Source: Patescibacteria group bacterium (GTDB taxonomy: Bacteria > Patescibacteriota > Minisyncoccia > GCA-002772825). Taken from it: a stretch of 53,835 nucleotides of DNA. The stretch lies in contig JANLHB010000039.1 of the NCBI GenBank assembly GCA_024654625.1, forward strand, positions 1-53,835, in the 5' to 3' direction. A model generated the notes under the pieces. The model searched no databases. It was not told where the DNA came from and saw nothing but the letters and a program-made list of their open reading frames with translations. The position numbers and the translations under genes were made by a program. Below are positions 12,907-53,079 of this stretch, in pieces. Each line of letters begins with the position of its first letter. Within the stretch, counting starts at the first letter, position 1.

Positions 12907-14562
12907 ATGAACAATAAAGATATTACTTATTTTGCCGAAGCTAATTTTCGTAATAAACACCAGCGTTTCGGTATAAAGCGCGATGATAGAACAAAGCATG
13001 TTTACGTTATAGGAAAGACCGGTATGGGTAAATCTACCATGCTTGAGAATATGGCGGTGCAGGATATTCAAAACGGCGAGGGAATGGCTTTTATAGATCC
13101 TCACGGAGCGACTGCCGAGCTCCTCTTGGATTATGTGCCGGAGGATCGCATAGATGATGTAATCTATTTTGCTCCGTTTGATACAGAGTATCCTATTTCT
13201 TTTAATGTGCTAGAAGATGTCGGTTACGACAAACGTCACTTGGTGGTGGCGGGTCTTATGAGCACATTTGAGAAGATCTGGGTTGACGCATGGTCTGCCA
13301 GAATGTCATACATCTTAAGCAACACGCTTCTCGCTCTCTTAGAATACCCAAACTCAACTTTGATGAGCATCAACAGAATGCTTGCTGATAAGGAGTATAG
13401 AAAGAAGGTTGTAGATAATATCACAGACCCCACGGTCAAATCATTTTGGGTCGATGAGTTTGCCAAATATACAGACAGATATACCCAGGAAGCGACACCG
13501 GCCATCCAAAACAAGATAGGTCAATTTACTTCAAATCCTTTGATAAGAAATATTATCGGACAGCCTAGGACCAGTTTTGATTTACGCAAATTGATGGACG
13601 AGAAAAAGATTATTATTATCAATCTTTCAAAAGGGCGGTTAGGTGAGCAGAATGCGAATCTCTTAGGTAGTATGCTTATCACTAAAATCTATCTTGCCGC
13701 TATGTCTCGCGCCGACGTATCAAGCGAAGAACTTAAAAAGCTTCCTCAATTTTATTTTTATGTTGATGAGTTTCAATCTTTCGCCAATAAATCTTTCGCT
13801 GATATATTATCCGAAGCGAGGAAGTATAAATTGAATTTAACTATTGCGCATCAATATATAGAGCAAATGTCAGAAGAGGTTAACGCTGCGGTGTTCGGAA
13901 ACGTGGGAACGATGATAGTATTTCGTGTCGGAGCTTATGATGCCGATATTTTAGAGAAAGAGTTTGCGCCTGAGTTTATAGCTCAAGATATCGTAAATCT
14001 CGGATTTACTCAGATCTATCTAAGGTTGATGATAAATGGAGTGGGGTCAAGACCTTTTTCCGCTTCCACCTTACCGCCGATTGCGAAGCTGGAGCATTCT
14101 TTTAAAGATAAGATAATTGAAGCTTCTAGGAAGAATTATGCTATTCCGAGAAAGACAGTGGAGGATATGATAAAGAGATGGCACGAAGATGGCGCTCCGA
14201 CTGTCTTGAGTAAACCTGGTTCTATAATGGCTAAGAAAGATGACAAACCTTTTGAGAAAAAGCCAGTATTCGCTTTAAGCGCAGATAAGCGCATCGAGCA
14301 AAGGCTGGATAACAAAAAGCCATATGAAAGAAAGTACGTTAAGCCAACCATCTCTCTAAATGCTTTGAAAGAAAAATCCGGAGAGAATGTTCTCATTAAC
14401 AATAAGAATAGAAGTCATGATCAAAGGAGCCATCCTCAAAAGGCGAGTGCCAATTTAAGCGCCTTAAGAGAAGCCTTAAATGAAATTGCGGCAACCGGCG
14501 AGCCTAAAGAAAAAAATAAAAGCGGAATATTAAAACCTGGACAAAAAATAAAATTTGATTAG
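12907..14562 (+). CDS. FtsK/HerA-superfamily P-loop ATPase, TraD/VirD4 coupling-protein-like, with Lys-rich disordered C-terminal tail
   Basis: Walker A VIGKTGMGKST, Walker B FYFYVDEFQSF, sensor Gln (TIAHQ); no N-terminal TM helices. Confidence 0.5.
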   Translation: MNNKDITYFAEANFRNKHQRFGIKRDDRTKHVYVIGKTGMGKSTMLENMAVQDIQNGEGMAFIDPHGATAELLLDYVPEDRIDDVIYFAPFDTEYPISFNVLEDVGYDKRHLVVAGLMSTFEKIWVDAWSARMSYILSNTLLALLEYPNSTLMSINRMLADKEYRKKVVDNITDPTVKSFWVDEFAKYTDRYTQEATPAIQNKIGQFTSNPLIRNIIGQPRTSFDLRKLMDEKKIIIINLSKGRLGEQNANLLGSMLITKIYLAAMSRADVSSEELKKLPQFYFYVDEFQSFANKSFADILSEARKYKLNLTIAHQYIEQMSEEVNAAVFGNVGTMIVFRVGAYDADILEKEFAPEFIAQDIVNLGFTQIYLRLMINGVGSRPFSASTLPPIAKLEHSFKDKIIEASRKNYAIPRKTVEDMIKRWHEDGAPTVLSKPGSIMAKKDDKPFEKKPVFALSADKRIEQRLDNKKPYERKYVKPTISLNALKEKSGENVLINNKNRSHDQRSHPQKASANLSALREALNEIAATGEPKEKNKSGILKPGQKIKFD

Positions 14563-23225: not shown

Positions 23226-26200
23226 ATGGATTCGTCTTTTACTTTTTTGAAAAAGGTTAGACAATTTGTCAGACATACAATAGATGCGAATGAAATGAGA
23301 AAGTTGGCTTTTTTAATAAGTGCCGGCTTTTTTATTTCATTAGCCTTATTTGTCCAGGGTGTAAATGCGGATATAACGACGAGTTTATTAGGTTATTGGA
23401 AATTTGATGAGACGACAGGGGTAACTGCTGTTGATAATAGTGGCGGCGGGAATACGGGGACATTATTAAATTCTCCGGTATGGACGACCGGCAAGGTGTC
23501 GGGAGGGCTTTCTTTTGATGGAGTGGACGATGCTGTTCAAATAGCTGATGGAGGCGCCTTCAATTTTGGATCCGGTGATTTTACTGTGTCAGCATGGTTT
23601 AAGACGTCATCAATCCAAACTAAAAATATCATTTCAAAATACATTGGTTCAGGCAGATACGCATTCAATCTCCAGGTTGGCGGCAGCGGTTTGATATCAT
23701 TTATGTCGTCAGACGGAGCTTCAAAACAAATAGGGGCGGCGGATACTCCTTATGAGGACGGAGCTTGGCATCATATTGTCGGCGTTAAGGACTCTGCTCA
23801 ATTGACTTTATATATTGATAATGTACTTAAAGGCAGTACCCCTTTTGGCGGCACCGTTGAAAATTCTAATTATAAAACATATATAGGGGCCAGAGGTTAC
23901 AATAATTTACCGCAGGATAATTATTTCCCCGGATTATTGGATGATGTTCGCATATATAATCGCGCTTTGACTCAATCAGATGTGGCGACGTTGTATGACT
24001 TCGGCGGTTATCAATGCAATGACGATACGGACAATGATTTAGACGGGTTAACGGATTATCCAGATGATTTAGGATGTTCATCTTACCAAGACGATAATGA
24101 AGTTAATTCAGTGTCGCCATCGGGCGACACTACCCCTCCTGTAATCTCAAGTATTCAAGCTGTAAACATTTTTCCAACAACGGCAGATATAACATTCACA
24201 ACCGATGACTTGGCTCATACTGAAATAAATTACGCCGCAGATTCATATTACACATCAAATTCAACTTACAACAATACAGATGTAGATTGGAATAAAGTAA
24301 CGGCGCATTCCATGACTTTAACAGGCCTTACTCCAAATACCGTTTACCATTATCAAATAAAATCTCAGAATAATTCCTCTTTAACCACTACCACATATAC
24401 GGATTATATATTTACAACTTTATCAGATAACACAGCGTCGCCGGTTATACCAGCCGACCCTTCAAAACAGACAGTTGCGCCAGGTACGCCCCTGCCTATT
24501 ATTCCGGGAGGAAAAGGTTTTGGGATAAACACTTATGCCGGAAGCGGCAGGAATCTTGCTGTCCCAAGTACTTCTGTCTATAAAGTGACAACTCTTAATC
24601 CTTCCGGCGCAGGATCACTGAAGGAGTGTGTGGATGCGACAGGGCCAAGGGTGTGCGTTTTTGAAATATCGGGAGTGATAGACATCTCAAGCCTCGGGGC
24701 GTGGGGGTTAAGAGTTAAAAATCCATATATAACGATAGCGGGGCAGACTGCGCCGTCGCCGGGAATAATGCTAAGAGGCGCACCTTTTATAATAGAGACT
24801 CATGATGTTTTAGTTCAGCATATAAGAATAAGGCCAGGCGATACTTTAGGATCAGGATGTGTTATCGGACCGGATAATTGCGATGCCGTGGCCGTAGTGG
24901 ATTTATATAATGAGAATGATGTCTATAATGTGGTCGTTGATCATGCCTCGCTTAGCTGGTCAATGGATGAGATTTTTTCAACATGGTATCCGAATGTTCG
25001 TGATATTACGTTAAGCAATTCAATTTTAAGCGAAGCCTTGCATAACTCTCTTCATCCAAAAGGACCGCATGGCTATGGGTTGATCGTAGGGATTGATTCA
25101 TCTAATATATCAATACTTGGAAATCTTGTAGCTCACAACTATCAGAGGAATCCTCTTCTTAGTATGGGGTCCGAGACGATTGTTGCTAATAACGTTTTTT
25201 ATAACGCCGGCCTGATGAAGACTCACGCTGATGCAAGATCAGGGCTTAAATCAAGTATCGTCGGCAATGTGTATCTTAAAGGCGCGGATTATTATTCGTC
25301 CGTGGCGCCAATTTACATTTATAATTCAGAATCAAGCGCTTCTGTGTATATTTCGGATAATGACGCGCCAGGGGCCACTTCAGATCCTTGGTCAATAGTG
25401 GCCGTAAAACCATCTGATATAATAAACCATGCTTCTATTCCGCCTGTTTGGGTGCCTAGCCTTAGCGTCCTTCCGAGTAATATTGTGAAAGACAATGTGC
25501 TTTTAAATGTAGGCGCACGTCCAGCAGATAGGGATCCAGTAGATATCCGTATCATAAATGAAGTGAAAAATAATACCGGTAATATCATAAACTGTGTTAA
25601 TTCGGATGGATCTGTTCGTTGCCAGAAAAATGCAGGAGGTTGGCCCGTCCTTCTTAAGAATTATCGCAAGTTGATAATTCCTAATAATCCTAATATGGAT
25701 GATGATGGTGACGGGTACACGAATTTGGAAGAATGGCTTCATTCATATGCTACGCAAGTGGAAGGAGTTTCTGTTTTGTATCAATGTTCAGATGGTATGG
25801 ATAATGATAGCGACGGTTTAACAGATTACCCTAACGATCCGGGTTGCGCTTCTGTTTCAGACAATGATGAATACAATGTTCCCGCCGACATCACGCCACC
25901 CGTTATCTCAAACATCTCTGCTTCAGTCACCGCCAACTCTGCCAATATCACTTACGCTACCAATGAACCGGGAGACACCCAGATAGACTACGGTCTCTCC
26001 ACTTCCTATGGTACCGCCACTAATTTAAACACCACCTCTGTTACTTCTCACAGCCAGACTCTAAACAATCTCTCGCCTTCCACCCTCTATCACTACCGAG
26101 TCAAATCCAAAGATACTTCAGGTAATACGTCCATTTCAACCGATAGAATTTTCACTACCGGAGGAATTACTGATGTTACGCCACCTTCAGCCCCAACCAA

Positions 26201-27488
26201 TCTCTCCACCTCTTTCGTCAATCATACTTCTATCACTCTAAACTGGACATCGCCCGGAGACGATGGCTCAGTCGGCACCGCTTTATCATATGACTTAAGA
26301 TACTCTACCTCGCCAATTACTGAATCATCCACGCCAGGCGGGACAAGCTGGTCATCCGCCACCCAAGCAGTAGGCGAACCAACTCCAAAGATTGCCGGCT
26401 CACCAGAGTTCTACACCTCAACCGGTCTAACCGCTTCCACCACCTACTATTTTGCCGTCAAAGCCATAGACGATGCTGGCAACACTTCCATTGTCTCTAA
26501 CATCGCTACAGACACTACTCATTCCTTAACTCTTTCCGTTAATCTTTCGGCTAATAATGTCACCGATCCTTCTTCCGGCAATACTACAGACAGCGGTAAT
26601 ACTTCAACCAGTGGCGGCGGCGGAGGTTCTGTTACTGTATCTTCCGGCGGCGGCGGCGGCGGAGGTGGTGGCGGTAACTATTACGACACCACTCCGCCGG
26701 AAGTTCCTAAGAGTTTCACTTCTCAATCAGCCGAAAATCAGGCCACTCTCGCATGGCAGAACCCACCAGATACAGACTTTGTCCGTGTTGCCATCGTTCG
26801 TTCCACTGCTCCGATTCCAAATCTTTCCACTTTCACTCAAGCTAAGTCACAAGGCACAGTCATCTACGAAGGCACAGATAATGAATACACAGATACCAAT
26901 CTTTTAAACAACACTCCTTACTATTACGCTATCTATTCTTACGACAAGAAGCCAAATTATTCTAATCCGTTCATCCTTCAAGCTGTTCCAAAACAAGGCC
27001 AGACTTCCATAACTGCTCAAACAACTCCTGCCACAATATCTGCCGCTCAATCATCAATTGCCCTTCCAACCCTTACCGGTCCATTTGCATTAGGTTATGA
27101 AAACGATCAAGTCAAACTCCTCCAACAATACTTAGCCAATCCGCCAGCTGGTGGAAAAGATATATATCCGGAAGGGATAACCTCAGGTTATTATGGCGCA
27201 TTAACTCAAAGAGCGGTGGAACGCTTTCAATGCAAATACCAAAACATCTGCTCAGGTTCTCCTTCCTCAACAGGCTATGGCCTAGCAGGCCCAAGCACAA
27301 GATTAAAGATTATGGCAATCCATGGTTCAACTGTTACATCAAGTGGTGGAACTGTGGCTTCAGCTTCCGAAGACGCTTTGAAAGCTCAACTAATGAAACA
27401 AATTGAAGAACTCCAAGCTATCTTACAACAACTCTTGGAACAGTTAGTTCAAGCGTTGGCGCTTCAGTTGGAGGGACTTACTCAGTAG
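23226..27488 (+). CDS. Large secreted multi-domain surface protein
   Basis: Signal or TM at N-terminus; LamG/ConA-like domain; two Cys-DNDxDGLTDYP modules; several fibronectin type III domains; pectate-lyase-like beta-helix; Gly-rich linker; C-terminal peptidoglycan-binding-like domain and coiled coil. Confidence 0.8.
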   Translation: MDSSFTFLKKVRQFVRHTIDANEMRKLAFLISAGFFISLALFVQGVNADITTSLLGYWKFDETTGVTAVDNSGGGNTGTLLNSPVWTTGKVSGGLSFDGVDDAVQIADGGAFNFGSGDFTVSAWFKTSSIQTKNIISKYIGSGRYAFNLQVGGSGLISFMSSDGASKQIGAADTPYEDGAWHHIVGVKDSAQLTLYIDNVLKGSTPFGGTVENSNYKTYIGARGYNNLPQDNYFPGLLDDVRIYNRALTQSDVATLYDFGGYQCNDDTDNDLDGLTDYPDDLGCSSYQDDNEVNSVSPSGDTTPPVISSIQAVNIFPTTADITFTTDDLAHTEINYAADSYYTSNSTYNNTDVDWNKVTAHSMTLTGLTPNTVYHYQIKSQNNSSLTTTTYTDYIFTTLSDNTASPVIPADPSKQTVAPGTPLPIIPGGKGFGINTYAGSGRNLAVPSTSVYKVTTLNPSGAGSLKECVDATGPRVCVFEISGVIDISSLGAWGLRVKNPYITIAGQTAPSPGIMLRGAPFIIETHDVLVQHIRIRPGDTLGSGCVIGPDNCDAVAVVDLYNENDVYNVVVDHASLSWSMDEIFSTWYPNVRDITLSNSILSEALHNSLHPKGPHGYGLIVGIDSSNISILGNLVAHNYQRNPLLSMGSETIVANNVFYNAGLMKTHADARSGLKSSIVGNVYLKGADYYSSVAPIYIYNSESSASVYISDNDAPGATSDPWSIVAVKPSDIINHASIPPVWVPSLSVLPSNIVKDNVLLNVGARPADRDPVDIRIINEVKNNTGNIINCVNSDGSVRCQKNAGGWPVLLKNYRKLIIPNNPNMDDDGDGYTNLEEWLHSYATQVEGVSVLYQCSDGMDNDSDGLTDYPNDPGCASVSDNDEYNVPADITPPVISNISASVTANSANITYATNEPGDTQIDYGLSTSYGTATNLNTTSVTSHSQTLNNLSPSTLYHYRVKSKDTSGNTSISTDRIFTTGGITDVTPPSAPTNLSTSFVNHTSITLNWTSPGDDGSVGTALSYDLRYSTSPITESSTPGGTSWSSATQAVGEPTPKIAGSPEFYTSTGLTASTTYYFAVKAIDDAGNTSIVSNIATDTTHSLTLSVNLSANNVTDPSSGNTTDSGNTSTSGGGGGSVTVSSGGGGGGGGGGNYYDTTPPEVPKSFTSQSAENQATLAWQNPPDTDFVRVAIVRSTAPIPNLSTFTQAKSQGTVIYEGTDNEYTDTNLLNNTPYYYAIYSYDKKPNYSNPFILQAVPKQGQTSITAQTTPATISAAQSSIALPTLTGPFALGYENDQVKLLQQYLANPPAGGKDIYPEGITSGYYGALTQRAVERFQCKYQNICSGSPSSTGYGLAGPSTRLKIMAIHGSTVTSSGGTVASASEDALKAQLMKQIEELQAILQQLLEQLVQALALQLEGLTQ

Positions 27489-33545: not shown

Positions 33546-35032
33546 TATATAATGTATTAGAGCCTATAAGAAGTATAGGTCGTCCTTTAATAATTTAAAA
33601 ATCCACTAAATAACAAGTCCAAAAAAACAATGATAGTCCGCCTAGGGCGGATTAATTCGGGCAATCAGCTTTCAGCTGAGCCCTCATTGAATATTATTCT
33701 TTCTTTTGTTCCGTTCTATTCAACCGAACATTCTTCGGAATGTTTTAGGTTTTTTTAAGAGTTTGATCCTAGTCCCGATTTTACTCGCATCTTTGATGCG
33801 ATTGTAAAATCGAGGATTCTCGAAAAATATATCCCGATTTCATCGGGAGTTATTTTTCGGAACTCAGGATATGTGATTTATTCATATATTTTGTTTGAGA
33901 ATCAATACTTCTTTTTTAAGAGTTTGATCCTAGCTCAGGATGAACGCTGGCGGCGTGGATAAGGCATGCAAGTCAAACGGGCACCTTCGGGTGCCAGTGG
34001 CAGACGAGGTAGTAACACGTAGGAACGTGCCTCTAAGTTGGGCATAATCCGCCGAAAGGCGGACTAATTCCCAATAGTCCCTTCGGGGTAAAGTCCGCTT
34101 CGGCGGACGCTTAGAGATCGGCCTGCGAGCTATCAGCTTGTTGGTAAGGTAATGGCTTACCAAGGCGATGACGGCTAGGGGAGGTGAGAGCCTGACCCCC
34201 ACCGATGGCACTGAGACACGGGCCATACACCTACGGGTGGCCGCAGTCGAGAATATTCCACAATGGGCGAAAGCCTGATGGAGCGACGCCGCGTGCAGGA
34301 TGAAGTCTTTCGGGATGTAAACTGCTTTTATGAGGGAGAAATTACGATGATGTTACCTCAAGAATAAGGGGCTGCTAAACTCGTGCCAGCAGCAGCGGTA
34401 ATACGAGTGCCCCGAGCGTTATCCGAAATTATTGGGCGTAAAGGGTTTGTAGGCGGCTTTGTTAGTCTCTTGTTAAAGCTTCCGGCTTAACCGGAAAAGT
34501 GCAAGAGAAACGGCAAATCTAGAGGATGCGAGAGGTCTATGGAACTCATGGTGTAGGGGTGAAATCCGTTGATATCATGGGGAACACCAAAAGCGAAGGC
34601 AATAGACTGGCGCACTCCTGACGCTGAAAAACGAAAGCGTGGGTAGCGAATGGGATTAGATACCCCAGTAGTCCACGCCCTAAACGATCTTCTCTAGCTT
34701 TTTGGAGTATCGACCCTCCGGGAGGCGAAGCTAACGCGTTAAGAGAAGCGCCTGGGAAGTACGGTCGCAAGACTAAAACTCAAAGGAATAGACGGGGACT
34801 TGCACAAGCGGTGGATCATGCGGTTTAATTCGATGATAAACGAAGAACCTTACCAGGGTTTGAAACCCAAGCGAAGTCCGCCAGAAACGGCGGACGTCTC
34901 ACAAGGACGGTTGGGCAGGTGATGCATGGCTGTCGTCAGTTCGTGGTTTGAATTGTTCCCTTAAGTGGGGTAACGAACGCAACCCCCGTTGCCTGTTATA
35001 TGTTTCAGGCGAGACTGCCCCTCACCAAACTC

Positions 35033-35122
35033 GGAAGAGTTTGGAAATCCGAAGCACGAAGCACGAAAAACGAAACAAAAAGTTTCGAATTTCGAATTTC
35101 GGATTTAACCAATCTTATTGGT
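35033..35122 (+). other. Palindromic IVS in 16S (around E. coli position 1130-1140)
   Basis: ccctcaccaaac...[cgaa/ttcg-rich insert]...ggtttggtgaggg extends a helix by ~90 nt. Confidence 0.6.
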
Positions 35123-35361
35123 TTGGTGAGGGGAGGAAGGCGGGGATGACGCCAAGTCAGCATGTCCCTTTGACACCCTGGGCTACACGCATGATACAAT
35201 GGTCGGTACAATGGGTCGCTAAGCGGTAACGCGGAGCCAATCCCATCAAAGCCGATCCCAGTCCGGATTGAGGTCTGCAACTCGACCTCATGAAGTTGGA
35301 ATCGCTAGTAATCGCAGGTCAGCTATACTGCGGTGAATACGTTCTCAAGTCTTGTACTCAC

Positions 35362-36206
35362 AATAAAAGCGCGCAGCAGCGCATAATTCTAAATGGTTAA
35401 AATCCATTCCCCTGATTCGTCGTCGGGGCGTAGCAGAAAGATAGCCTTTTACCGCGAGGTAAATGGTGGAGGATCTGAAAGCAAAAGATAGTCCAACATA
35501 AAAATGAGCGTATTGATTTACGAATGGGTGGTGAGCGTAGAGAAAATACACAAAAAACTCAGTTGGAATGTCTGGAAAAGAAATATGCGTGACCTGTGGA
35601 GATCTGACGTTGTTATCAGCCTTTAAGGCTGATATAATTAAACTTACGCAGCGTCAGAAGTCAGCTGAGTCATAGTATCCGCCTTAGGCGGAGAAGGCAC
35701 TCACTCTATGCAAAAGATTAACCCAGATTATATTGTAGGTTTGGTGGACGGCGAAGGCAGTTTTACTGTCTATGTACGCAATCCATCAAAAATTTCTCTT
35801 ACTCGAAGAGTTAAGATAGAACCAAAATTCTATTTGAAACTAATTGAGAAAGATAAAAGAATTTTGTATCAATTAAAAGATTTTTTTGGTTGTGGAAGTG
35901 TGTATTTTCAAAAAGATACACGACCTAATCATCAAAACTGTTATAGATACGAAGTTTATAATAGAAATGATATCCGATCGATCATAATTCCATTTTTTCA
36001 GAAATATAAATTGAAGTTTCCTTCAAAAAAGAAGGACTTTGATATATTCTGTAAAATGTTTTCTTTGATTGAGAAGGGTGAACACCTCAAAGAATCTGGT
36101 TTGAAGAAGTTGTATACCTTGAAACAACATATGCATTAGAGCTCGCCGTATACGGGAAATCCGTCCGTACGGTGGGAACATAAATTCGTAGTTTAACGAA
36201 GATAAT
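35362..36206 (+). mobile_element. Intron (probably group I) in the 16S decoding-centre region (between E. coli positions 1399 and 1400), carrying a homing endonuclease ORF
   Basis: 845-nt insertion between GUACUCAC and CGCCCGUCAC, with an internal LAGLIDADG ORF. Confidence 0.7.
35708..36139 (+). CDS. Single-motif LAGLIDADG homing endonuclease, intron-encoded
   Basis: GLVDGEGSF motif at the N-terminus, 143 aa, located inside the 16S rRNA gene. Confidence 0.8.
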   Translation: MQKINPDYIVGLVDGEGSFTVYVRNPSKISLTRRVKIEPKFYLKLIEKDKRILYQLKDFFGCGSVYFQKDTRPNHQNCYRYEVYNRNDIRSIIIPFFQKYKLKFPSKKKDFDIFCKMFSLIEKGEHLKESGLKKLYTLKQHMH

Positions 36207-44129: not shown

Positions 44130-46583
44130 ATGAAAACCAATCTAATAACAAATTTAGCAGTTTCAATAATATTTTTAACTGCTTTCTTCGTTGTGCCTAT
44201 TTCAGTAAATGCTCAGATCCTAGAGTCGTTACTAGAACCAATAATGCCCGGTATGACATCAGGGGAGGGGATCTATTTTGAAATCACAGACAGTGAGTAT
44301 TTAAATGTTTCTCTAGGTAGTTCTAAAGATATAAAGATAATAATGGAGTCAATGCCGGAGATGATAACGCTCGTGATAGAGCCGGTTCTTTCATCTACTT
44401 CCACCCAACTCATCTTTTTCGGTCTTGAGCCTATGACAACTTATTACAAATATCAAGATGATTATCATAATCTTACGGAATTTAAAACCAACGAGGATGG
44501 CATCTATACTTACACCCAGGACTTATCAAATCCTCATCTCATCTTCATACAACCTCGAAAAAGCACTAAATTTATTAAAGATAACGCCACAGGAGGTGAT
44601 TGCACTTCAGTTGGGATTTGGGATTCAGCCACAAAAACCTGCACCCTTATCGCTGATGTTAATGAGACAATACAGATAGACGATGCTAAAATTACCCTTG
44701 ATGGAGATGGTTATGCAGTAATCGGAAGCGGTACGGGCTTTGGTGTTTATCTTCCTATAATAACGGGTGTTACAGTAAAAAATCTTAATATTTCGAACTT
44801 TTTTATTGGAGTTTTTGTTTATATTTCTAGGAATTATTACAATAATGATCAGAATATTATTGTAGAAAATACGATTTCAGATAATTATGAGGGGATCGAC
44901 CTTAGGTTTTCTTCTAATAGCATTGTTTCGAAAAATATTATTTCTAATAATAATAAGGGAATATCATTTGGTTTTTATGCTGAGAATAATATTGCCATGG
45001 ATAACACATTCTTAAATTCAGATTTTCTATTTAGTTATTCTCCGAACAATAAAATATATCATAATAATTTTCTTAATAGCTCTGTAATTATTTATGGAGA
45101 ATCCAATAATCTTTTTGACAATGAGCTTCCTGGCGGCGGAAACTATTGGGGTAGTTTTGACGAGCCCGCAGAAGGGTGTCATGATTCAAATTTTGATAAA
45201 TTTTGCGACACACCTTATATTTTCTCCGGTGGGCAGGATAATTACCCTTGGGTAAAGCAAGATGGGTGGGAATCACCTCCTATTTTAGATGTTCCGAAAT
45301 ATTACCAAAATACCACTAATACTCCACAAGACCCGGATTGGCCGAATGAGACTTACGACCTTACATCAAATACAATATATCAAAAAGGGTGTGCTTTGGC
45401 TTCTGTAACAATGCTTCTGAATTATTATGGTGCAAATACGACCCCTGATACCCTTGAGCCAACTAACCCTCATTCATTAAATCGATGGCTGAATAGAACA
45501 GACGGCTATGTTACATCTACTGAGCAATTAGGCAACATAATTTGGGGAGCGATGGATAATTTTTCTGATAAGGAATCATTTGTTAAAGACTGGGAAACTT
45601 TTGATTGCACAATAGGGAATTTAGAAGAATGCAAAAATATTCTTAATTATGATTTGGATAATGAAAGACCGGTGATTATTTATACATTTAATATAGATGC
45701 GAATATTAATCATTTTGTCGTGGCTACTGGTAAGGCCGATGATAGTTGGTATATTAATGATCCGTTTTGGCTTAATGAAAATACTCCAACAAGACTTTCT
45801 GATAATGTTTATCGTGACAAAATCCTAGGCCTCCGTCGATACAAACCTGAACCAGCTACTGATCTATCCTTTCTTAATATAACCTTGGCCTCCCCAGCTG
45901 AATTGCTTATTATTGATTCCCAAGGCAGGAAAACCGGTTTTGATCCAATTACTCAAATCACTTACAACGATATCCCTAACACTATTTACTACCATGAGCG
46001 TTTAGATAACGATGAAACTGGCCAAATAGGCGTAGAAATAAAAAATTTGTATATCAGCATGCCAGAAAATGCTATTTATAATCTTCAGGTTGTTGGAACC
46101 GCCACTGGTCCTTATGGGTTATCTTTTAACAGCAGGGATATAGATGGCGACTCATCTGTTAGTGTTGAGAGCGGCCTAACTCAGGAGCACTTTATATCCG
46201 AGTATCTAATAAATTATAATAGTCAGCCAGATAGTCCGGTTAAAATTGAACGCACGGTTACAATTCAGGATATAATAGTTAAAGTAGAAATTGCCGGGAA
46301 ATTAAATTTAATTGATAATGACGGCATTGAGGATAGCCTCATCCAAAGTTTAAATCAAGCAGAAAAGAAATTAAGTCAGGGTAAAACAGAAACTACCACA
46401 AACATTCTTCAATCCGTAATAAATGAGCTTAATGCTCAGTCAGGTAAACATATAGATTCAGGTACCGCTAATATATTGATTGAAGATATTCAATTTATCA
46501 TTTCTCAAAATAATCTGAATTCTCAATCAGTACGATTATCTTTTATGCTCGCTGACTTACATGAAGCACTTTCCTCTTTTTAA
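44130..46583 (+). CDS. Secreted right-handed beta-helix (NosD/pectin-lyase-fold) protein with C-terminal C39-like peptidase domain
   Basis: Signal peptide; repeated ...N.I..N...GI.. beta-helix turns; GCALASVTMLLNYYG..HFVVATG resembles a papain-like C39/BtrH-type domain. Confidence 0.55.
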   Translation: MKTNLITNLAVSIIFLTAFFVVPISVNAQILESLLEPIMPGMTSGEGIYFEITDSEYLNVSLGSSKDIKIIMESMPEMITLVIEPVLSSTSTQLIFFGLEPMTTYYKYQDDYHNLTEFKTNEDGIYTYTQDLSNPHLIFIQPRKSTKFIKDNATGGDCTSVGIWDSATKTCTLIADVNETIQIDDAKITLDGDGYAVIGSGTGFGVYLPIITGVTVKNLNISNFFIGVFVYISRNYYNNDQNIIVENTISDNYEGIDLRFSSNSIVSKNIISNNNKGISFGFYAENNIAMDNTFLNSDFLFSYSPNNKIYHNNFLNSSVIIYGESNNLFDNELPGGGNYWGSFDEPAEGCHDSNFDKFCDTPYIFSGGQDNYPWVKQDGWESPPILDVPKYYQNTTNTPQDPDWPNETYDLTSNTIYQKGCALASVTMLLNYYGANTTPDTLEPTNPHSLNRWLNRTDGYVTSTEQLGNIIWGAMDNFSDKESFVKDWETFDCTIGNLEECKNILNYDLDNERPVIIYTFNIDANINHFVVATGKADDSWYINDPFWLNENTPTRLSDNVYRDKILGLRRYKPEPATDLSFLNITLASPAELLIIDSQGRKTGFDPITQITYNDIPNTIYYHERLDNDETGQIGVEIKNLYISMPENAIYNLQVVGTATGPYGLSFNSRDIDGDSSVSVESGLTQEHFISEYLINYNSQPDSPVKIERTVTIQDIIVKVEIAGKLNLIDNDGIEDSLIQSLNQAEKKLSQGKTETTTNILQSVINELNAQSGKHIDSGTANILIEDIQFIISQNNLNSQSVRLSFMLADLHEALSSF

Positions 46584-46610
46584 GGTTATTAGCTTATTAA
46601 TAAATTAAAT

Positions 46611-47330
46611 ATGCAAAAAAATATTTATATAGCCATATTCATAATCATCACCATTGGTGTCGGTTATTTTATCTACTACAATAAAGGAGATGGACAGCGG
46701 TCAGATATATCACAACCGAAAGATAATCATTATGATATTCCAAACTTAGAGGAGCTGAAAGCAAAAACAGCTGATTGGGATGTTTATGAAGATGAAGAAT
46801 ATGGGATAAAGGTTAGGTATCCGTTAGGGTGGTCATACGAGTCACCGCCGGATGTTTTTAGGGGTGGTCCACAAATAACAAGTTATAATGCGCCTATGAT
46901 TTTCTCAACCAACAAGCAAATGGAAGGCATAGAGGGAGCAAAAACTATGAGTGGTCTAGGGGGGGGGACTTCGATTAGTATATTTTATTCTGAAGACCTC
47001 AGCAAAATTCCCACGGAAGAATCCATGTCTCAATACTACGAAGAGAAAAAATTTAAGGAGATTGAAACTTTTTCTATAAATGGTTTTGAGGGAGTTATCG
47101 CCACAAGAGAATATAGTGCAAAAGAGAGAGAGGAAGCAGGTTTAGAAGGAGCATTAAGAATTCAGCAAGGGTTGGTTTTTCGCAAATTTAATGAGCGTGT
47201 TTATTATGTCCAGTGGGGATTATACGAAGAATATGCATACAGTAAATTTGATTATTCAGACATTTCTTACCAAAATCAATTCTTTCCATTTCTAGCAACA
47301 TTTATGAGTTTGGAGGAAGAAAAGAAATAG
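46611..47330 (+). CDS. Hypothetical membrane-anchored protein
   Basis: N-terminal TM, no recognisable domain. Confidence 0.45.
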   Translation: MQKNIYIAIFIIITIGVGYFIYYNKGDGQRSDISQPKDNHYDIPNLEELKAKTADWDVYEDEEYGIKVRYPLGWSYESPPDVFRGGPQITSYNAPMIFSTNKQMEGIEGAKTMSGLGGGTSISIFYSEDLSKIPTEESMSQYYEEKKFKEIETFSINGFEGVIATREYSAKEREEAGLEGALRIQQGLVFRKFNERVYYVQWGLYEEYAYSKFDYSDISYQNQFFPFLATFMSLEEEKK

Positions 47331-47512: not shown

Positions 47513-48040
47513 ATGTTCTTAAACCCAGAACAAATAATAAAGAGATTAGATATTAATCCGGGAATAATTGCTGTTGATTTTGGCTGCGGTACCGGGCACT
47601 GGAGTGTTGCTCTTGCAAAGCAAGTCGGGGATATTGGTAAGGTTTATGCTTTAGATATACAGAAGGAGATGCTCGAGGCGACTAAGTCTAGAGCCGAGGC
47701 TTTAGGTCTTCTGAATGTAGAAGTGGTTCGCGGCGACCTTGATGAGGAGAACGGCTCAAATCTTTCTTCAGGGATAGCTGATTTTGTATTACTTTCCAAT
47801 ATATTATTTCAAGCTGATAAGAGGGAGGTGATGGTGAAGGAAGCTTCTAGGGTACTGAAGAGCGGTGGGGAAGTCGCTATTATTGAATGGGATCAAAGCG
47901 ATGTCCCGCTTGGACCGCCGAAGCAATTGAAGCTTAAACCGGAAGATGCGAGAAGAATGTTTTTAGAGGCCGGTTTCGTATTTAAAGATGACTTTCCTGC
48001 AGGAGAACATCATTATGGGCTACTTTTTAAAAAAATGTAA
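47513..48040 (+). CDS. Class I SAM-dependent methyltransferase
   Basis: Motif I VDFGCGTGHW, motif II-III spacing, 175 aa. Confidence 0.75.
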   Translation: MFLNPEQIIKRLDINPGIIAVDFGCGTGHWSVALAKQVGDIGKVYALDIQKEMLEATKSRAEALGLLNVEVVRGDLDEENGSNLSSGIADFVLLSNILFQADKREVMVKEASRVLKSGGEVAIIEWDQSDVPLGPPKQLKLKPEDARRMFLEAGFVFKDDFPAGEHHYGLLFKKM

Positions 48041-48130: not shown

Positions 48131-49423
48131 ATGAGTAAATTTAATATCATATTAATAACAGTCTTTGTAATCGCGGCTGTTTTAGCTGTGTTGCTGTTTT
48201 CTGGCCTTATTCCTGGTTTTGGACTAGGTGGTGGCGCACAAAAGGCAGATATTGTATTTTGGGGCACTATTGATAAAAAAGCGATGCAACCCATAATAGC
48301 TGTTTTAAATGAGCAGAATAAAAATATTTTTTCAATACAATATATAGAGAAGCCCGCTTCTTCTTTTGAAAACGACCTTATAAACGCGCTTGCAAGCTCT
48401 AGTGGTCCTGACTTATGGCTTCTCCCTCAAGACCTAATTTTAAAGCATGAAGATAAAATTTTCATAACCCCTTATAGTTCTACACTGACAGAGCGAGATT
48501 TTAAAGACGCTTTTGTTTCTGAGGCGGAACTTTTTATTAATTCTACCGGTATAATAGGTTTCCCTTTTACAATAGATCCAATCGTGATGTATTGGAATAA
48601 AGATCTGTATCAAGGAGCCGGTATTTCTATACCGCCCGAATTCTGGGATGAGTTTCTTGTGAATGCGCCTATCTTTAGTCGTTACGATGACGCGGGGAAT
48701 ATCACTCAATCCGGGGCGGCGCTTGGTGAATTCTCAAATATTAAAAATGCTAAAGAGCTTGTCTCTATGCTGATACTTCAGACAGGGAATAGTATTGTAG
48801 ATCCACAGAGCAGAGAAATTATTTTCAACGAGAAAGGGAATTCGATTCTTCCGCCGGCAGAATCAGCAGTGAAGTTTTATAATCAATTTTCTGATCCAGC
48901 CAAAGATTCCTATGTGTGGAACAGAGGGATGGAGGATTCCAGAAGACTTTTTTCTTCCGGCAGGCTGGCCAATTATTTTGGATTTGCTTCTGATTTTGTG
49001 GTTATAAAGAATCTAAATCCTCATCTTAATTTTGATGCAGCTCTAGTGCCCCAGATAAAAGACGGTAGTCTGGTCGCCACTTTCGGCAGGATGGAAGCGG
49101 TAGTTGTATCAAAAGCCTCTAAGAACATAAGCGCCGCATTCTCTGCCGCATATTTACTCTCATCAGCGCCTTCCATTAGATTAGTGGAAGAGAATTTGTT
49201 GTTACCGCCTGTTCGCCGTGATATTATAAAGGAAGGCGCTAAGAGTCCGGAGATGGCTGTATTTTATAAAGCTTCTCTTCAGTCTAAGGGGTGGTTAGAA
49301 CCGGACACTAAGGCGACCTACGACATATTTAAAGAGATGATAGAGTCGTCTGCAGTAGGGAAGATGAGGATATATGAAGCGGTCCGTCAGGCCGAAGGAC
49401 GACTGGAAAAATTGTTAAAATAA
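48131..49423 (+). CDS. Membrane-anchored extracellular solute-binding protein-like (SBP family 1/MalE-like), no adjacent permease
   Basis: N-terminal TM; ~400-aa periplasmic-binding-protein-like region; assignment from overall pattern only. Confidence 0.45.
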   Translation: MSKFNIILITVFVIAAVLAVLLFSGLIPGFGLGGGAQKADIVFWGTIDKKAMQPIIAVLNEQNKNIFSIQYIEKPASSFENDLINALASSSGPDLWLLPQDLILKHEDKIFITPYSSTLTERDFKDAFVSEAELFINSTGIIGFPFTIDPIVMYWNKDLYQGAGISIPPEFWDEFLVNAPIFSRYDDAGNITQSGAALGEFSNIKNAKELVSMLILQTGNSIVDPQSREIIFNEKGNSILPPAESAVKFYNQFSDPAKDSYVWNRGMEDSRRLFSSGRLANYFGFASDFVVIKNLNPHLNFDAALVPQIKDGSLVATFGRMEAVVVSKASKNISAAFSAAYLLSSAPSIRLVEENLLLPPVRRDIIKEGAKSPEMAVFYKASLQSKGWLEPDTKATYDIFKEMIESSAVGKMRIYEAVRQAEGRLEKLLK

Positions 49424-49426
49424 TTT

Positions 49427-49873
49427 ATGAAATTTTCTTTACCTTCAATTTTAAGTTTAATGATACTTCTTTTTGTATTTTCGCTAACCTTTATTCCCGT
49501 TTTTGTGTCAGCTTGGGCGCCGGGTCAATCTATCGTACCTTGTGGTTTAGGCGGAGGTACTTCCTGTAAGGCCTGCCACATATTTCCTCTTGCTAATAAT
49601 GTTATAAGTTTTATATTGCTTGGACTTGCGATGCCTTTTGCTGTTGTAATGATCCTCTGGGGAGGTATTCTTATGGTGACTGGCGCCGGTAACCCGGGGC
49701 AACTGGAGAAAGGAAAAAACTATCTAACATGGGCAGTGATAGGGCTTGTGGTTGCATTTGCAGGCTGGATAATTGTTGATACGATAATAAAAGCGCTTAC
49801 TGTGAAAACTAACTGGGGGGCGAGTGCTTCGTGGAGTTTTGGCCCTTGGAATGAGATACCAGCTTGTAAATAA
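49427..49873 (+). CDS. Small secreted 2-TM protein, VirB2/TrbC-pilin-like (paralog 1 of 4)
   Basis: Signal peptide, CGLGGGTSCKAC, TM1 - loop NPGQLEKGKNYLT - TM2. Confidence 0.5.
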   Translation: MKFSLPSILSLMILLFVFSLTFIPVFVSAWAPGQSIVPCGLGGGTSCKACHIFPLANNVISFILLGLAMPFAVVMILWGGILMVTGAGNPGQLEKGKNYLTWAVIGLVVAFAGWIIVDTIIKALTVKTNWGASASWSFGPWNEIPACK

Positions 49874-49903
49874 AAGAGTAATATAAATAAAAAAATAATA
49901 AAT

Positions 49904-50332
49904 ATGAATATACTAAAAACAAAAAAATCTCTAACTGGATTTATCCACAAAATTAAAAAAACATTATTGCCCAAGCAGATTTTTTGGTCTATTATTAGTT
50001 TAGCGTTATTTTTACCATTTTTTGTTTATTCGGATGAGGTAGGGGTAACAACAGGAAGTGGTGGAAGCAGTTCATTGAAGAATCCATTAGCAGTCGATTC
50101 TGTCTCAGCGCTTGTGAAAGCTGTTGCCGAGATTGTTATGAAAATTGGCTTTATGGTTGCGGTAGTCTTCATCATATATTCCGGTTTCTTGTATGTGTCA
50201 GCGAGGGGGAGTGAAGAGAAGTTAAAGAAGGCACACTCCACTTTCACGTGGACGATTATAGGTACAGCTGTTATCTTGGGTGCATGGACCATCGCAATGG
50301 TGATAGAGTCAACGGTTAAGTCGTTAAAATAA
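49904..50332 (+). CDS. Small 2-TM protein, VirB2/TrbC-pilin-like (paralog 2)
   Basis: Signal peptide, TM1 - loop ARGSEEKLKKAHSTF - TM2 (W.IIG..). Confidence 0.5.
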   Translation: MNILKTKKSLTGFIHKIKKTLLPKQIFWSIISLALFLPFFVYSDEVGVTTGSGGSSSLKNPLAVDSVSALVKAVAEIVMKIGFMVAVVFIIYSGFLYVSARGSEEKLKKAHSTFTWTIIGTAVILGAWTIAMVIESTVKSLK

Positions 50333-50418
50333 TAAATAAACAGGTCGATGTTTTCCGCCAAGAATGGGTTCACCTCGCCAAGGTGGGGTAAAATTAGAAA
50401 TTAAAAATAAAAAAATAT

Positions 50419-50757
50419 ATGCAAAAATTAAAAAAATTCATTCCAGTAGGTTTAATGTTCGCACCTTCATTAGCGTTTGCGGCTACCATAGAAAGTATAT
50501 TGGATAATATAAGTAGTATAATTAATCTTGTTATTCCTTTGCTTATAGCAATTGCTTTAGTTGTATTCATCGTCGGTGTTATCAAATATATCACTGCCGG
50601 TGCAGACGAGGAGAAGAGAAAAGAAGCGCGAAATACTATCATTTATGGTGTTATCGGCCTTTTTGCAATAGTTGCCGTATGGGGGCTTGTTGGAGTTATC
50701 GCCTCTACTTTTGGTATTGATACAGGTGGGACTATTGATATACCTCAGCTTCCATAA
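50419..50757 (+). CDS. Small 2-TM protein, VirB2/TrbC-pilin-like (paralog 3)
   Basis: Signal peptide (AFAA), TM1 - loop AGADEEKRKEARNT - TM2 (IIYGVIGL). Confidence 0.5.
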   Translation: MQKLKKFIPVGLMFAPSLAFAATIESILDNISSIINLVIPLLIAIALVVFIVGVIKYITAGADEEKRKEARNTIIYGVIGLFAIVAVWGLVGVIASTFGIDTGGTIDIPQLP

Positions 50758-50783
50758 GAAATTAAATAATTTTATAACAAAAA

Positions 50784-50814
50784 GAAAATCCCTCTTTTTT
50801 AAAGAGGGATTTTC
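50784..50814 (+). terminator. Rho-independent terminator between paralogs 3 and 4
   Basis: gaaaatccctctttttt/aaagagggattttc. Confidence 0.8.
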
Positions 50815-50844
50815 TTTTTATGTAGATTAGTATAAAATATAAAT

Positions 50845-51138
50845 ATGAATAATTTATTTTATAAAACAGCTCAAGCTGCGAGCCATATAACTACTGACGC
50901 AGATACTCTAATTAATAACATCGCTGTGAAGATTCTAAATCCTTTTATAGGGCTTATGATATCTGTCGCTCTTTTGTTATTTATTTACGGGGTTATAGAA
51001 TTTATCGCTGGCGCTGATAATGAAGATAAGAGAGCACAAGGCAAACAGCATATTATATGGGGAGTAGTAGGCCTATTTATAATGGTAGGGGTCTTTGGTC
51101 TAATTAGAATTATTATAAATTTCTGGAAAGGAATCTAA
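50845..51138 (+). CDS. Small 2-TM protein, VirB2/TrbC-pilin-like (paralog 4)
   Basis: TM1 - loop AGADNEDKRAQGKQH - TM2 (IIWGVVGL); closest in sequence to paralog 3. Confidence 0.5.
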   Translation: MNNLFYKTAQAASHITTDADTLINNIAVKILNPFIGLMISVALLLFIYGVIEFIAGADNEDKRAQGKQHIIWGVVGLFIMVGVFGLIRIIINFWKGI

Positions 51139-51173
51139 GGTTAAAAAGGTGAGACCTTTTGGGAGGGTAAAAC

Positions 51174-51236
51174 CCCGTCGCTCGCGAGCGACGGGGTAAA
51201 AAAATAGGCGGTGGGGAATTAACTTTCCCCACCGCC
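51174..51236. terminator. Two tandem GC-rich hairpins, bidirectional terminator
   Basis: ccccgtcgctcgcgagcgacgggg and ggcggtggggaattaactttccccaccgcc. Confidence 0.75.
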
Positions 51237-51247
51237 TTTGTGTTACA

Positions 51248-51976
51248 TTACGCCTTTTCTAGGAAGATCTCTATAGTCCCTCCTGACGACAGCCCTATTA
51301 CCTGGAAAAGGCCTTTTCTGGCTCCAAGCCAAACCTGCCTGCCTGGTCCGCCTATAAATTCAGCCCCATCTATGAAGCGGATCTTATAATCCGCGTTAGG
51401 GCGTGTCCTATAGGCAACGTTAGGAGGGAGTGTCACTTTCGTTGTGCAGTCGTGCCTGAACCGAACTATGACCTTTCCGGAAGGTTTTACTTTAGAGAAG
51501 TTATAGTTTTTGGCGCATGTGGGTATCGTTGGGGTCTGATCTGTCTTCGTATTCCAGCTCCACTCACCCACTAATGCCACTATATAGATCAACAGCAGGG
51601 TGAGTCCAGCGTTGAGGTGGAATCGAGCCTTTTTTCTCTGAATAGACTCCTCCCAGCTTTTTGCTGTCACACCGGTAAGCATATCAATGGCCATCATTGT
51701 AACAATAGCCATTGCTGTTAGTATCCAATTGTGAGTGAGGTATGGTCTTACCCATGAAACGTGGAATAGAATCCCAAAAAGCAGGATATAGCTTAATGGA
51801 ATTCCGGCACTCTCACGGAAACGCTCTATTGCCGTCTTTTTTCTCTCCTCTGCTTTTGTACTAGTTTCTTTTTTTCCGCTGACGGCTTTTAGCACCGTCG
51901 GAATTGCTCCTCTGGCATATATTTTAGTCAAAAGGATCAACAAGACGACTAGAAAGATGATTAGCTCTATATTCAT
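51248..51976 (-). CDS. Multi-TM membrane protein with C-terminal soluble domain, possibly an NfeD-like partner of the SPFH protein
   Basis: 4-5 TM helices then a ~100-aa C-terminal domain; start overlaps the SPFH stop; GGAGGG SD 4 nt upstream. Confidence 0.35.
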   Translation of the reverse strand: MNIELIIFLVVLLILLTKIYARGAIPTVLKAVSGKKETSTKAEERKKTAIERFRESAGIPLSYILLFGILFHVSWVRPYLTHNWILTAMAIVTMMAIDMLTGVTAKSWEESIQRKKARFHLNAGLTLLLIYIVALVGEWSWNTKTDQTPTIPTCAKNYNFSKVKPSGKVIVRFRHDCTTKVTLPPNVAYRTRPNADYKIRFIDGAEFIGGPGRQVWLGARKGLFQVIGLSSGGTIEIFLEKA

Positions 51977-53079
51977 TACTCCCTCCTATCCCTTTTTTCT
52001 CCTAAGCCTAAGGCAGAGCCTACGGCCATTATTTCTTTGAAGCCTTCGCTACCAACCACTATCGTTTTCTGTCCAGGGTTGGCAGTAATAGCTCTTGCTG
52101 TCTCAGCCCCGATTATAACATCAGAGGAAACATCAAGGGCTTTTTTCATATTAACTAATCCTTTTGTCCTTCCTCTGAGAATAGCTTCCTCAGCGGATCC
52201 ATCGCCTTCACCTAAGAGACGCTTCGCCTCTTTTTCTGCTCCCGCGCTTTTTACGCGAGCAATTGCTTTTAAAGTCGCCTCGGGAACATCTCCGACAGCG
52301 TCATTTAGTGTGTGGTGTAGGTTTATCATCTTTATCTGGGCCGTTTGCAACTCTACCCCCCACCCGTCTATCCGTTCTTGGATCTCTATGTGGAGCTCTT
52401 GACTGTATGTCCCAATGTTTGCCAACATTACAGCCGGCGTGATTTTAGCGGCCTCCCTAAAGACACAGCCAACAGCGCTATCTTCTATCTGCCTTATTGA
52501 TTCCTCCTTACTACCAATGGTAGTTAAGAAGAGGAGATAGTCAGTGATTTTCCAGCGGATTACTAATACAACCTCCGCGGTTATTCTCACATTAAGTGGG
52601 TCATCTACAGGAGGGATGATTAGCTGTTTTAGTCTGCTGATTTCCAATTTTTGTATTTCTTCCTCTGTCATCGGGGGTCCGAACGGAACCCGTATGGGTG
52701 GAAAAAGCCCATCGGGAACAAGACCATCCCCTCTGAATATCTTAGTAGGGTCACCCGGAATCTCGTCTTGTATCGTGAGACAAGTTTCTGTTTTGATTTG
52801 GCATATCCCAATAGGGGAGAACACTAAACCAGAAGACAGGTTGCTCACGGGTTTTCCAAAGATGAGTCTCGCCCCGAGCTCCGTTGGCCCTATTCTACGG
52901 AGACTTACTAAGGTGTAGAGTACAAGCGTTAGAAGCAGTGCCTGCCCCCAGTTTAAGGTCATTCCACTGATTGTCTTTGTGTAGGGGAGTAACAACAATC
53001 CTGTTATAAACAGCGTTATGTATATAGCCGCTGTTATTTTCCAAAACCATCCAATCTTCTTTATAAAGTTTTTCATCAC
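51976..53079 (-). CDS. SPFH/band-7 domain protein (stomatin/flotillin/HflK-like), membrane-anchored
   Basis: N-terminal 2 TM; SPFH core (VVLVIRWKITD..IEDSAVGCVFREA..QERIDGWGVEL..IKMINL); C-terminal coiled coil; canonical AAGGAGG SD 5 nt before ATG. Confidence 0.7.
   Translation of the reverse strand: MMKNFIKKIGWFWKITAAIYITLFITGLLLLPYTKTISGMTLNWGQALLLTLVLYTLVSLRRIGPTELGARLIFGKPVSNLSSGLVFSPIGICQIKTETCLTIQDEIPGDPTKIFRGDGLVPDGLFPPIRVPFGPPMTEEEIQKLEISRLKQLIIPPVDDPLNVRITAEVVLVIRWKITDYLLFLTTIGSKEESIRQIEDSAVGCVFREAAKITPAVMLANIGTYSQELHIEIQERIDGWGVELQTAQIKMINLHHTLNDAVGDVPEATLKAIARVKSAGAEKEAKRLLGEGDGSAEEAILRGRTKGLVNMKKALDVSSDVIIGAETARAITANPGQKTIVVGSEGFKEIMAVGSALGLGEKRDRRE

Follow-up and report, generated by a model that had tools for sequence, protein, structure and literature searches.

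An SBP-linked, virB4-remote array of four VirB2-like pilin-family paralogs in Paceibacteria

What are four small, consecutive membrane proteins doing in a housekeeping region of a Patescibacteria chromosome, directly behind a lone solute-binding protein (SBP) gene, and could they be pilins of a type IV secretion system (T4SS) encoded elsewhere? The question is raised by contig JANLHB010000039.1 of assembly GCA_024654625.1, a stretch of 53,835 nucleotides called the window below. A reading made from the letters of the DNA and their translations (the sequence-only reading) had described four neighboring same-strand genes at 49427-51138 as paralogs with one shared layout, resembling VirB2/TrbC pilins. 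The listing of open reading frames (ORFs) contains them at exactly these coordinates:

49427..49873, + strand: pilin paralog type 1; 148 amino acids (aa); 'pilin' at NCBI (MCR4343067)
49904..50332, + strand: pilin paralog type 2; 142 aa; 'pilin' at NCBI
50419..50757, + strand: pilin paralog type 3; 112 aa; 'pilin' at NCBI, identical to MCR4343069 (Parcubacteria group bacterium)
50845..51138, + strand: pilin paralog type 4; 97 aa; 'hypothetical protein' at NCBI

Alignment of the four proteins with MAFFT placed the motifs claimed to close helix 1 (VTGAG, SARG, TAGA and IAGA) in register. They are followed by a charged loop of 10-12 residues between the two hydrophobic helices and by a second helix that starts W/Y..(V/I)IG(L/T). 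Pairwise BLASTP bore out the paralogy, with identities of 21-42% and E-values between 2.7e-6 and 6.6e-20, which are somewhat inflated for hydrophobic proteins because the comparisons were run without composition correction. Each of the four also exceeds the gathering cut-off of the Pfam family PF18895 (T4SS_pilin, 26.6 bits), scoring 46.2, 43.4, 50.6 and 36.1 bits for paralogs 1-4, respectively. Since these four matches are independent of BLASTP, the paralogy and homology are real and not a product of chance hydrophobicity.

Other family models point in the same direction with less force. Paralog 3 passes the NCBIfam model NF045849, 'pilin-like conjugal transfer protein' (44.1 bits; cut-off 40), whereas paralogs 1, 2 and 4 miss this cut-off, paralog 4 just falling short at 38.4 bits. 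Paralog 4 also gives weak sub-threshold matches to IncI1 TraQ (E = 3.2e-4) and VirB2. Nearly all of the 82 close homologs of paralog 3 carry PF18895, and the family is very large, since 80,402 members emerged at E <= 1e-3 when 1.84 billion representative proteins were searched with a profile. Type IV pilin families, which had been named for checking, were not indicated: there was no match to Pfam N_methyl, and the N-termini do not contain the G↓F/M-x-x-x-E motif. Taken together, the family matches make it very likely that the four genes belong, as paralogs, to the VirB2-like T4SS pilin family of Patescibacteria.

The four proteins share a two-helix core and differ around it. A hydrophobic N-terminus, usually cleavable, had been proposed for the set; Kyte-Doolittle hydropathy located a signal-like segment on paralogs 1-3, where AxA-type sites also hint at leaders, and none on paralog 4. 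Paralog 1 combines its signal-like N-terminus with an ecto segment containing C39, C47 and C50, two transmembrane (TM) helices and a C-terminal tail ending in C147. Paralog 2 has a long basic n-region and a hydrophobic signal-like segment ahead of its two-TM core, and paralog 3 combines a putative signal peptide of classical form, with AFA↓A at its end, with a two-TM core and a short G/P-rich C-terminal tail. Paralog 4 consists of a short hydrophilic N-terminal tail and the two-TM core, and its orthologs likewise have no signal peptide. In an AlphaFold2 (AF2) model of paralog 3 built from a 73-sequence alignment (predicted local distance difference test, 81.5), a short leader helix precedes helices 24-59 and 64-98, which form a hairpin. 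The modeled hairpin is compatible with the conjugative pilin fold and does not discriminate between folds; a Foldseek search of the model against the Protein Data Bank (PDB) returned no match with E < 1.

It is in the genomic setting that the evidence parts from the sequence-only reading. The lone SBP-like gene noted upstream of the array is real, and a methyltransferase gene precedes it:

47513..48040, + strand: class I S-adenosylmethionine (SAM)-dependent methyltransferase, 175 aa; Pfam Methyltransf_31/25/11
48131..49423, + strand: membrane-anchored lone SBP_bac_1-type protein; Pfam 47.8 bits; 'extracellular solute-binding protein' at NCBI

In the window, the SBP stop codon lies 3 nt ahead of the ATG of paralog 1. 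The SBP profile matches solved sugar-binding SBPs, the best being MBP1 (4r9f, E = 1.4e-17). The window contains no ATP-binding cassette (ABC) permease or ATPase gene, and none was found in the +/-10 kb around six related loci. An SBP-dependent transporter of the TRAP/TTT type, prompted by weak DctQ/TctB matches, was considered and rejected; the matches are far below cut-offs and there is no large permease.

The neighborhoods of six homologs of paralog 3, ranging from 86% down to 44% identity, have an identical gene order: Lactamase_B_3, gyrA, the 175-aa SAM methyltransferase, an SBP_bac_1 protein of ~430 aa, four to six PF18895 genes, and a convergent pair encoding a membrane protein and an SPFH protein. 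When an SBP alignment was searched against contigs representing one genome per species, at least 540 relatives were recovered, and the best 80 loci (SBP identity 37-84%) were analyzed, their pilins being found with a local pilin hidden Markov model and by phmmer with the window proteins. All 80 belong to Paceibacteria-type metagenome-assembled genomes (MAGs), including Campbell-, Kaiser-, Yonath-, Terry-, Taga-, Niyogi- and Tayloriibacteria. Six loci are truncated at the SBP; in each of the 74 testable loci, which extend more than 300 nt beyond it, a pilin array follows the SBP immediately (median of 3 nt from the SBP stop to the first pilin ORF start), and the order gyrA, methyltransferase, SBP, array is kept. 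The methyltransferase gene lies directly upstream of the SBP in 77/80 loci (L010-L089), its ORF often overlapping or nearly abutting that of the SBP. It may be linked to the locus in function, perhaps by modifying the pilins or the SBP. The sequence-only reading had placed the array outside the core gene set; a syntenic chromosomal locus across the class Paceibacteria, with positional orthologs of each paralog that diverge no faster than the adjacent SBP and methyltransferase, contradicts this, and the locus is lineage-core and not a variable accessory cassette.

Two neighboring regions differ in how widely they are kept. Downstream, a convergent unit on the - strand at 51248-53079 consists of two genes whose stop and start overlap, one for an SPFH/Band_7 protein of 367 aa and one for a multi-TM protein of 242 aa; the 242-aa protein has a weak, sub-threshold holin-family match, and many related loci have the unit in the same place after their pilin arrays. 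The region 44130-47330, which separates gyrA from the methyltransferase, encodes an 817-aa secreted protein (NosD/beta-helix, Peptidase_C39-like and FIMAH domains) together with a second protein of 239 aa. Both genes are absent from that position in all related loci inspected, which indicates a lineage-specific insertion into the conserved block.

The arrays of related loci are composed of recognizable types. When their pilins were typed by best match to the four window paralogs, the order was kept in most loci: type 1 first, type 2 second, type 3 in one to four copies, and the short, leaderless type 4 last. Copy number, which had been singled out for comparison, does vary, from 1 to 8 genes between species and mainly by duplication of type 3. 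Of the 59 non-redundant loci that leave 3.5 kb or more for an array, 14 have four genes, 30 have five and 10 have six; rarer sizes are seven genes (n = 1), eight genes (n = 1) and one to three genes (n = 3). Relative to the related locus L006, for example, identity is 68% for GyrA, 47% for the SBP, and 39, 55, 59 and 55% for types 1-4, respectively. Positional orthologs therefore diverge about as fast as their neighbors, whereas paralogs within the array are just 21-42% identical, which indicates that the duplications are ancient and that each type has been maintained. Because a fixed four-type set is under purifying selection, a division of labor is favored over antigenic variation.

Cysteines distinguish type 1 from the mostly Cys-free types 2-4. 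Among 44 type 1 orthologs, ~25 carry two cysteines N-terminally, in the ecto segment, and lack any at the C-terminus, and ~19, including that of the window, have three ecto cysteines (C...CxxC) together with one at the extreme C-terminus; no ortholog has a mixed pattern. The residues suggest one local disulfide in type 1 and, in the clade of the window, an additional disulfide staple between the N- and C-terminal parts, with C50 and C147 as the predicted pair. The group with three plus one cysteines is probably a single clade, so that one event may account for the covariation. The window also encodes a DsbA-like thioredoxin, at 2376-3200.

How might such a set work? In the scheme that we consider somewhat more likely than not, the proteins are pilin hairpins assembled by a remote VirB4-type T4SS, with a division of labor among the types. 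Types 1-3 would be made as pre-proteins, inserted by Sec/YidC and cut by type I signal peptidase, for which the window has an S26 gene at 7617-8180, and type 4 would be inserted into the membrane without a leader. All four would then form N-out/C-out helical hairpins with the short, strongly charged loop, which is mixed basic and acidic, in the cytoplasm. A VirB4-type T4SS encoded elsewhere would draw on this membrane pool and build a surface filament or conduit for contact with host cells. The four types would have distinct structural roles, for example as bulk as opposed to base or tip subunits, and would not be interchangeable; type 1 of this clade would have its N-terminal ecto segment tied by a disulfide to its C-terminus. 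The membrane-anchored sugar-binding protein would be a probable partner, serving as adhesin, receptor or assembly factor. As far as the available part of the published listing goes, VirB4 is present elsewhere in the genome in 6/6 of the locus-carrying genomes looked up, all listed as Paceibacteria. This favors the scheme, as do a coupling-protein gene in the window, the high expression of T4SS pilins in cultured Patescibacteria and the essential pilin array of Southlakia epibionticum, all described below.

Several observations weigh against assembly into a conjugative-type pilus, among them the genetic context. Proximity to VirB4/VirB6-like genes had been proposed as a check; none lies in the window, where every ORF of sufficient size was scanned for VirB4, and none within +/-10 kb of the six relatives. 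VirB3 was likewise not found in the window or within +/-10 kb of these relatives. Genetically, then, the array has no tie to a T4SS. Within +/-6 kb of the 80 loci there are no VirB3/VirB4/VirB6-type genes, and the sole T4SS-related gene is a type IV coupling protein (T4CP) gene in L006. The only other T4SS-related gene of the window also encodes a T4CP, 35 kb from the array:

12907..14562, + strand: VirD4/TrwB-like coupling ATPase (T4CP); TrwB_AAD_bind 39.4 bits, T4SS-DNA_transf 33.9 bits

Coupling proteins of this sort usually lie far from virB4 and may be exapted (PMC12102498). The T4CP gene belongs to a conserved trio with a DUF4015 glycosyl-hydrolase-like gene and an LTD+PKD surface protein gene, which occupies 11615-15955 in the window and 14420-18598 in L006, 35 kb and 5 kb from the respective arrays. 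A tblastn search of paralog 3 against 72,556 plasmids gave no match, and a direct tie to known conjugative plasmids is thus not indicated.

A published survey bears on both sides, its VirB2 scores supporting family membership. In the part of its data available to us, genome GCA_000996035.1, which holds the related locus L066, has three nearly consecutive genes (CDS 184, 186 and 188; CDS, coding sequence) scored as VirB2 by the CONJScan profiles T_virB2 / B_traE with the entry 'VirB4 proximity: No', some 400 genes from virB4 (CDS 582), and a separate single PF18895 pilin adjoins virB4 (PMC12102498). That single virB4-adjacent pilin could be the real pilus subunit. We infer, provisionally, that CDS 184/186/188 are the SBP-linked array of L066. 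The same portion of Table S3 lists three consecutive 'FATA_PrgF' genes, again with 'VirB4 proximity: No', in Campbellbacteria genomes (PMC12102498). Its PF18895 matches are all near virB4, and the virB4-remote tandem genes of Paceibacteria, captured in part only, stand under FATA_PrgF, T_virB2 and B_traE. As far as these entries go, the Campbellbacteria and other virB4-remote tandem Paceibacteria genes are probably SBP-linked arrays, and the published count of pilin arrays may under-represent Paceibacteria.

The proteins themselves supply the remaining objections. None of the four reached the cut-off of TrbC PF04956 (27.9 bits) in the Pfam scan: paralog 1 scored 18.1 bits (E = 0.0031) and paralog 2 scored 22.4 bits (E = 1.5e-4), paralogs 3 and 4 gave no match, and a genuine VirB2 used as control scored 64.9 bits. 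Several orthologs in related loci also give sub-threshold TrbC matches, which, like those of paralogs 1 and 2, speak for a VirB2/TrbC relationship. Comparison of the family profile by hhalign with VirB2 (0.3% probability) and TraA (2.7%), single-sequence templates of low sensitivity, was insignificant, as was that with single-sequence pCF10 PrgF (9.4%, E = 0.0034, 42 columns); PrgF itself has no PF18895 match. Because of these results the proteins are filed under PF18895 and not PF04956. The proposed VirB2/TrbC identity thus stands at the family level, through PF18895, and does not extend to PF04956 or to a VirB4/VirB6 neighborhood. To our knowledge no pilus has been imaged for this family, and its Pfam name was given by inference, not experiment. 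Natural fusions are a further difficulty. Many family members in the representative library (P0089-P0235) are single polypeptides with 2-17 pilin modules joined by G/S/T-rich linkers; P0091, for example, has six modules, and in P0103, a protein of 1,775 aa, 17 stretches are matched. Fusion proteins are also encoded at L008 8664-9803, L015 5330-6325 and L036 4722-6347, some of them inside SBP-linked arrays. The fusions are either poly-pilin precursors or evidence of side-by-side packing, and multi-module chains would be awkward for a classical helical pilus unless cleaved.

In a rival reading, the hairpins would stay in the membrane and form a hetero-oligomer there, such as a ring or channel that works with the SBP in binding and uptake of a host-derived compound independently of the T4SS, and 'pilin' would be a misnomer for this locus. 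The coupling of the SBP to the first pilin is invariant and tight (median gap 3 nt, 74 loci), the stoichiometric four-type set is fixed and conserved, the tandem-fused proteins imply close packing, and the array is far from virB4 while, in the published data available, a separate pilin adjoins it. The fold also resembles membrane hairpins such as ATP-synthase subunit c, through weak matches. However, no permease, ATPase or other energizing gene is linked to the array, all sequence-family evidence leads to conjugative pilin relatives, and the DctQ/TctB matches below cut-offs are typical of TM composition. The conserved order moreover reaches gyrA, so that the linkage of SBP and pilins may in part be frozen synteny. 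We regard such a complex as unlikely. The array could instead be a repertoire of interchangeable major pilins by which antigens or host range are varied, an idea put forward for the virB2 duplicates of Anaplasma/Bartonella and suggested for Patescibacteria arrays (PMC12102498). The low identity within the array (21-42%, near the published mean of 25%) and the variation between species from 1 to 8 copies, mainly by type 3 duplication, would fit this, but the order of types is conserved, the orthologs of each type evolve at about the rate of the SBP, and signal peptide, cysteines and tails set the types apart in a systematic way. Repeats or recombination signals did not turn up, although no search was aimed at them. 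Interchangeable variants are accordingly improbable in our estimate.

A last alternative is that these are small two-TM proteins of an unrelated kind, for example holins, toxin-like peptides or bacteriocin-immunity proteins, whose likeness to pilins reflects hydrophobicity alone. Small two-TM proteins are easily over-annotated, and a profile of the four paralogs met only spurious TM helices of G-protein-coupled receptors and oxidases among the PDB sequences. Against this stand four independent above-threshold matches to PF18895 and a context of chromosomal housekeeping genes, not of phage or bacteriocin genes. The sequence-only reading had named a match to a holin or immunity family among the results that would overturn it, and none was found in Pfam or PHROGs; the one PHROG hit, for paralog 3 only, is to a family with no assigned function (E = 5.9e-4). 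The idea of an unrelated family is largely refuted and very remote.

Placed beside known systems, the array is a new setting for a described phenomenon. Quinonero-Coronel et al. (2025) applied PF18895, PF04956 and CONJScan profiles to 3,035 Patescibacteria genomes and found VirB2-like pilins in 1,948 VirB4-positive assemblies, near virB4 in 1,135 of these, together with 441 arrays of 2-11 pilin genes in 383 assemblies, with a mean identity of 25% and a maximum of 54% (PMC12102498). The window's array belongs to this kind and is like theirs in family (PF18895), phylum, tandem arrangement and low identity (here 21-42%). Their survey was centered on the virB4 neighborhood and highlighted Microgenomatia and Saccharimonadia, whereas the array described here is virB4-remote and sits in a gyrA/methyltransferase/SBP locus; the text of that paper makes no mention of an SBP linkage. 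In Southlakia epibionticum ML1, a series of six pilins inside a T4SS cluster is essential by transposon sequencing (Tn-seq) (Wang et al., 2023; PMC10633639; reviewed in PMC12857230). These too are divergent, structurally similar predicted pilins of a monoderm Candidate Phyla Radiation (CPR) bacterium, with no relaxase, but they lie within the T4SS cluster (SEML1_0006-0019) of a member of the Saccharimonadia, whereas the Paceibacteria array is detached and known from sequence. The phenomenon of pilin arrays is therefore already published for Patescibacteria (PMC12102498; PMC10633639; PMC12857230), and three of the four proteins are already 'pilin' in GenBank.

Resemblance to the classical pilins Agrobacterium VirB2, RP4 TrbC and F TraA lies in small size, a putative leader peptide, two helices, a short charged loop and a predicted N-out/C-out topology. 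The window's proteins differ from them in not reaching the PF04956 cut-off, in having no virB operon and a monoderm host, and in that no TraF-type cyclase was seen; by analogy only, type 1 may use disulfides in place of the head-to-tail cyclization of TrbC/VirB2. Small two-TM proteins of monoderm conjugation systems are also represented by the 'Mbov_0395 family' (NF045849) of the Mycoplasma integrative and conjugative element (ICE) and by pCF10 PrgF, although, as given above, three paralogs are below the NF045849 cut-off and the alignment with PrgF reached 9.4% probability. Archaeal Ced/Ted conjugation-like pili (Aeropyrum pernix pilin, PDB 8dfu) are a further system among the closest known. 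A functional analogy is offered by the minor-pilin operons of type IV pili, in which a fixed, ordered set of divergent paralogs likewise implies distinct structural roles; these belong to an unrelated protein family with a class III signal peptide and N-methyl motif that the window's paralogs do not have.

Transcription signals were examined along the array. The sequence-only reading had given each gene its own promoter, had seen terminators after paralogs 2 and 3, and had ended the array at a strong bidirectional terminator. None of the three intergenic spacers has a + strand sigma-70-like match, which does not favor individual promoters; the region as a whole has 14 such matches against 9.5 +/- 2.5 in shuffles, not clearly above background, and the scan is uninformative. 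The terminator after paralog 3 is convincing, whereas paralog 2 is trailed by just a weak hairpin (z = -0.72, without a U tract) and a terminator there is not borne out. The bidirectional terminator was confirmed as two strong GC hairpins between convergent genes:

50779..50819, + strand: hairpin in the spacer of paralogs 3 and 4, with A and U runs on its flanks (RNA fold)
51172..51237, both strands: two GC-rich hairpins (51172-51197 and 51206-51237), matched on both strands in the terminator scan

The fold of 50758-50844 has -25.6 kcal/mol (z = -5.85, with 0/200 shuffles equally stable), and the hairpin at 50779-50819 looks like an intrinsic terminator or attenuator. At the array end, the fold has z = -6.5 for the + strand and z = -8.4 for the - strand.

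The contig is chromosomal, from a Parcubacteria MAG with typical CPR features, and its housekeeping genes include ftsZ/ftsA, gyrA, secDF and hisS. An origin from a mobile element or plasmid was considered and rejected, the window carrying rRNA genes, ftsZ/ftsA, gyrA, secDF and a tRNA synthetase gene. Insertions in rRNA genes are typical of CPR bacteria. The 23S rRNA gene (17142-21058) measures 3,917 nt against a model of 2,925 nt, giving an insertion of ~1 kb inside the gene, and an ORF of 108 aa within it (20006-20332) has no Pfam match. The 16S rRNA gene (region 33912-36139) is unlinked from the 23S-5S genes, which stand ~13 kb upstream. It is followed by a D1-D4 fragment of a group II intron (35623-35699, 37.3 bits), a LAGLIDADG endonuclease ORF (35708-36139) and tRNA-Ile at 36620. 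Elsewhere, 9604-10257 encodes an IS200/Y1-transposase-like protein of 217 aa, and 23226-27488 a LamG/fibronectin-III surface protein of 1,420 aa, a possible adhesin.

What T4SS-like machinery and pilin arrays do in Patescibacteria is acknowledged to be an open question; the only organism tested cannot do without the system. A 2024 perspective on Saccharibacteria called the role of their T4SS 'completely unknown' (PMC11665869). In cultures of Ca. Yanofskyibacterium and Ca. Microsyncoccus, T4SS pilins rank with the unknown genes of highest expression (Kuroda et al., 2024; PMC10936435). The locus described here leaves the overall picture unchanged, being a further instance of a published and already annotated phenomenon; its modest addition is an ancient, fixed-order, SBP-linked and virB4-remote locus type of Paceibacteria. 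A bolder extension, which we hold to be distinctly doubtful, is that the gyrA-linked methyltransferase/SBP/pilin unit encodes a class-wide Paceibacteria organelle apart from the virB4-side pilin. It would be a filament or conduit of hetero-subunit hairpins, with the SBP as host-glycan receptor, tip adhesin or cargo receptor and type 1 disulfide-stapled instead of cyclized. If true, it would link the T4SS-like machinery of Patescibacteria to host recognition or nutrient capture. For Paceibacteria, the largest CPR class, the locus provides three leads: an invariant lone sugar-SBP-like partner of the pilins, the fixed set of four types, and a second pilin locus apart from the virB4 cluster.

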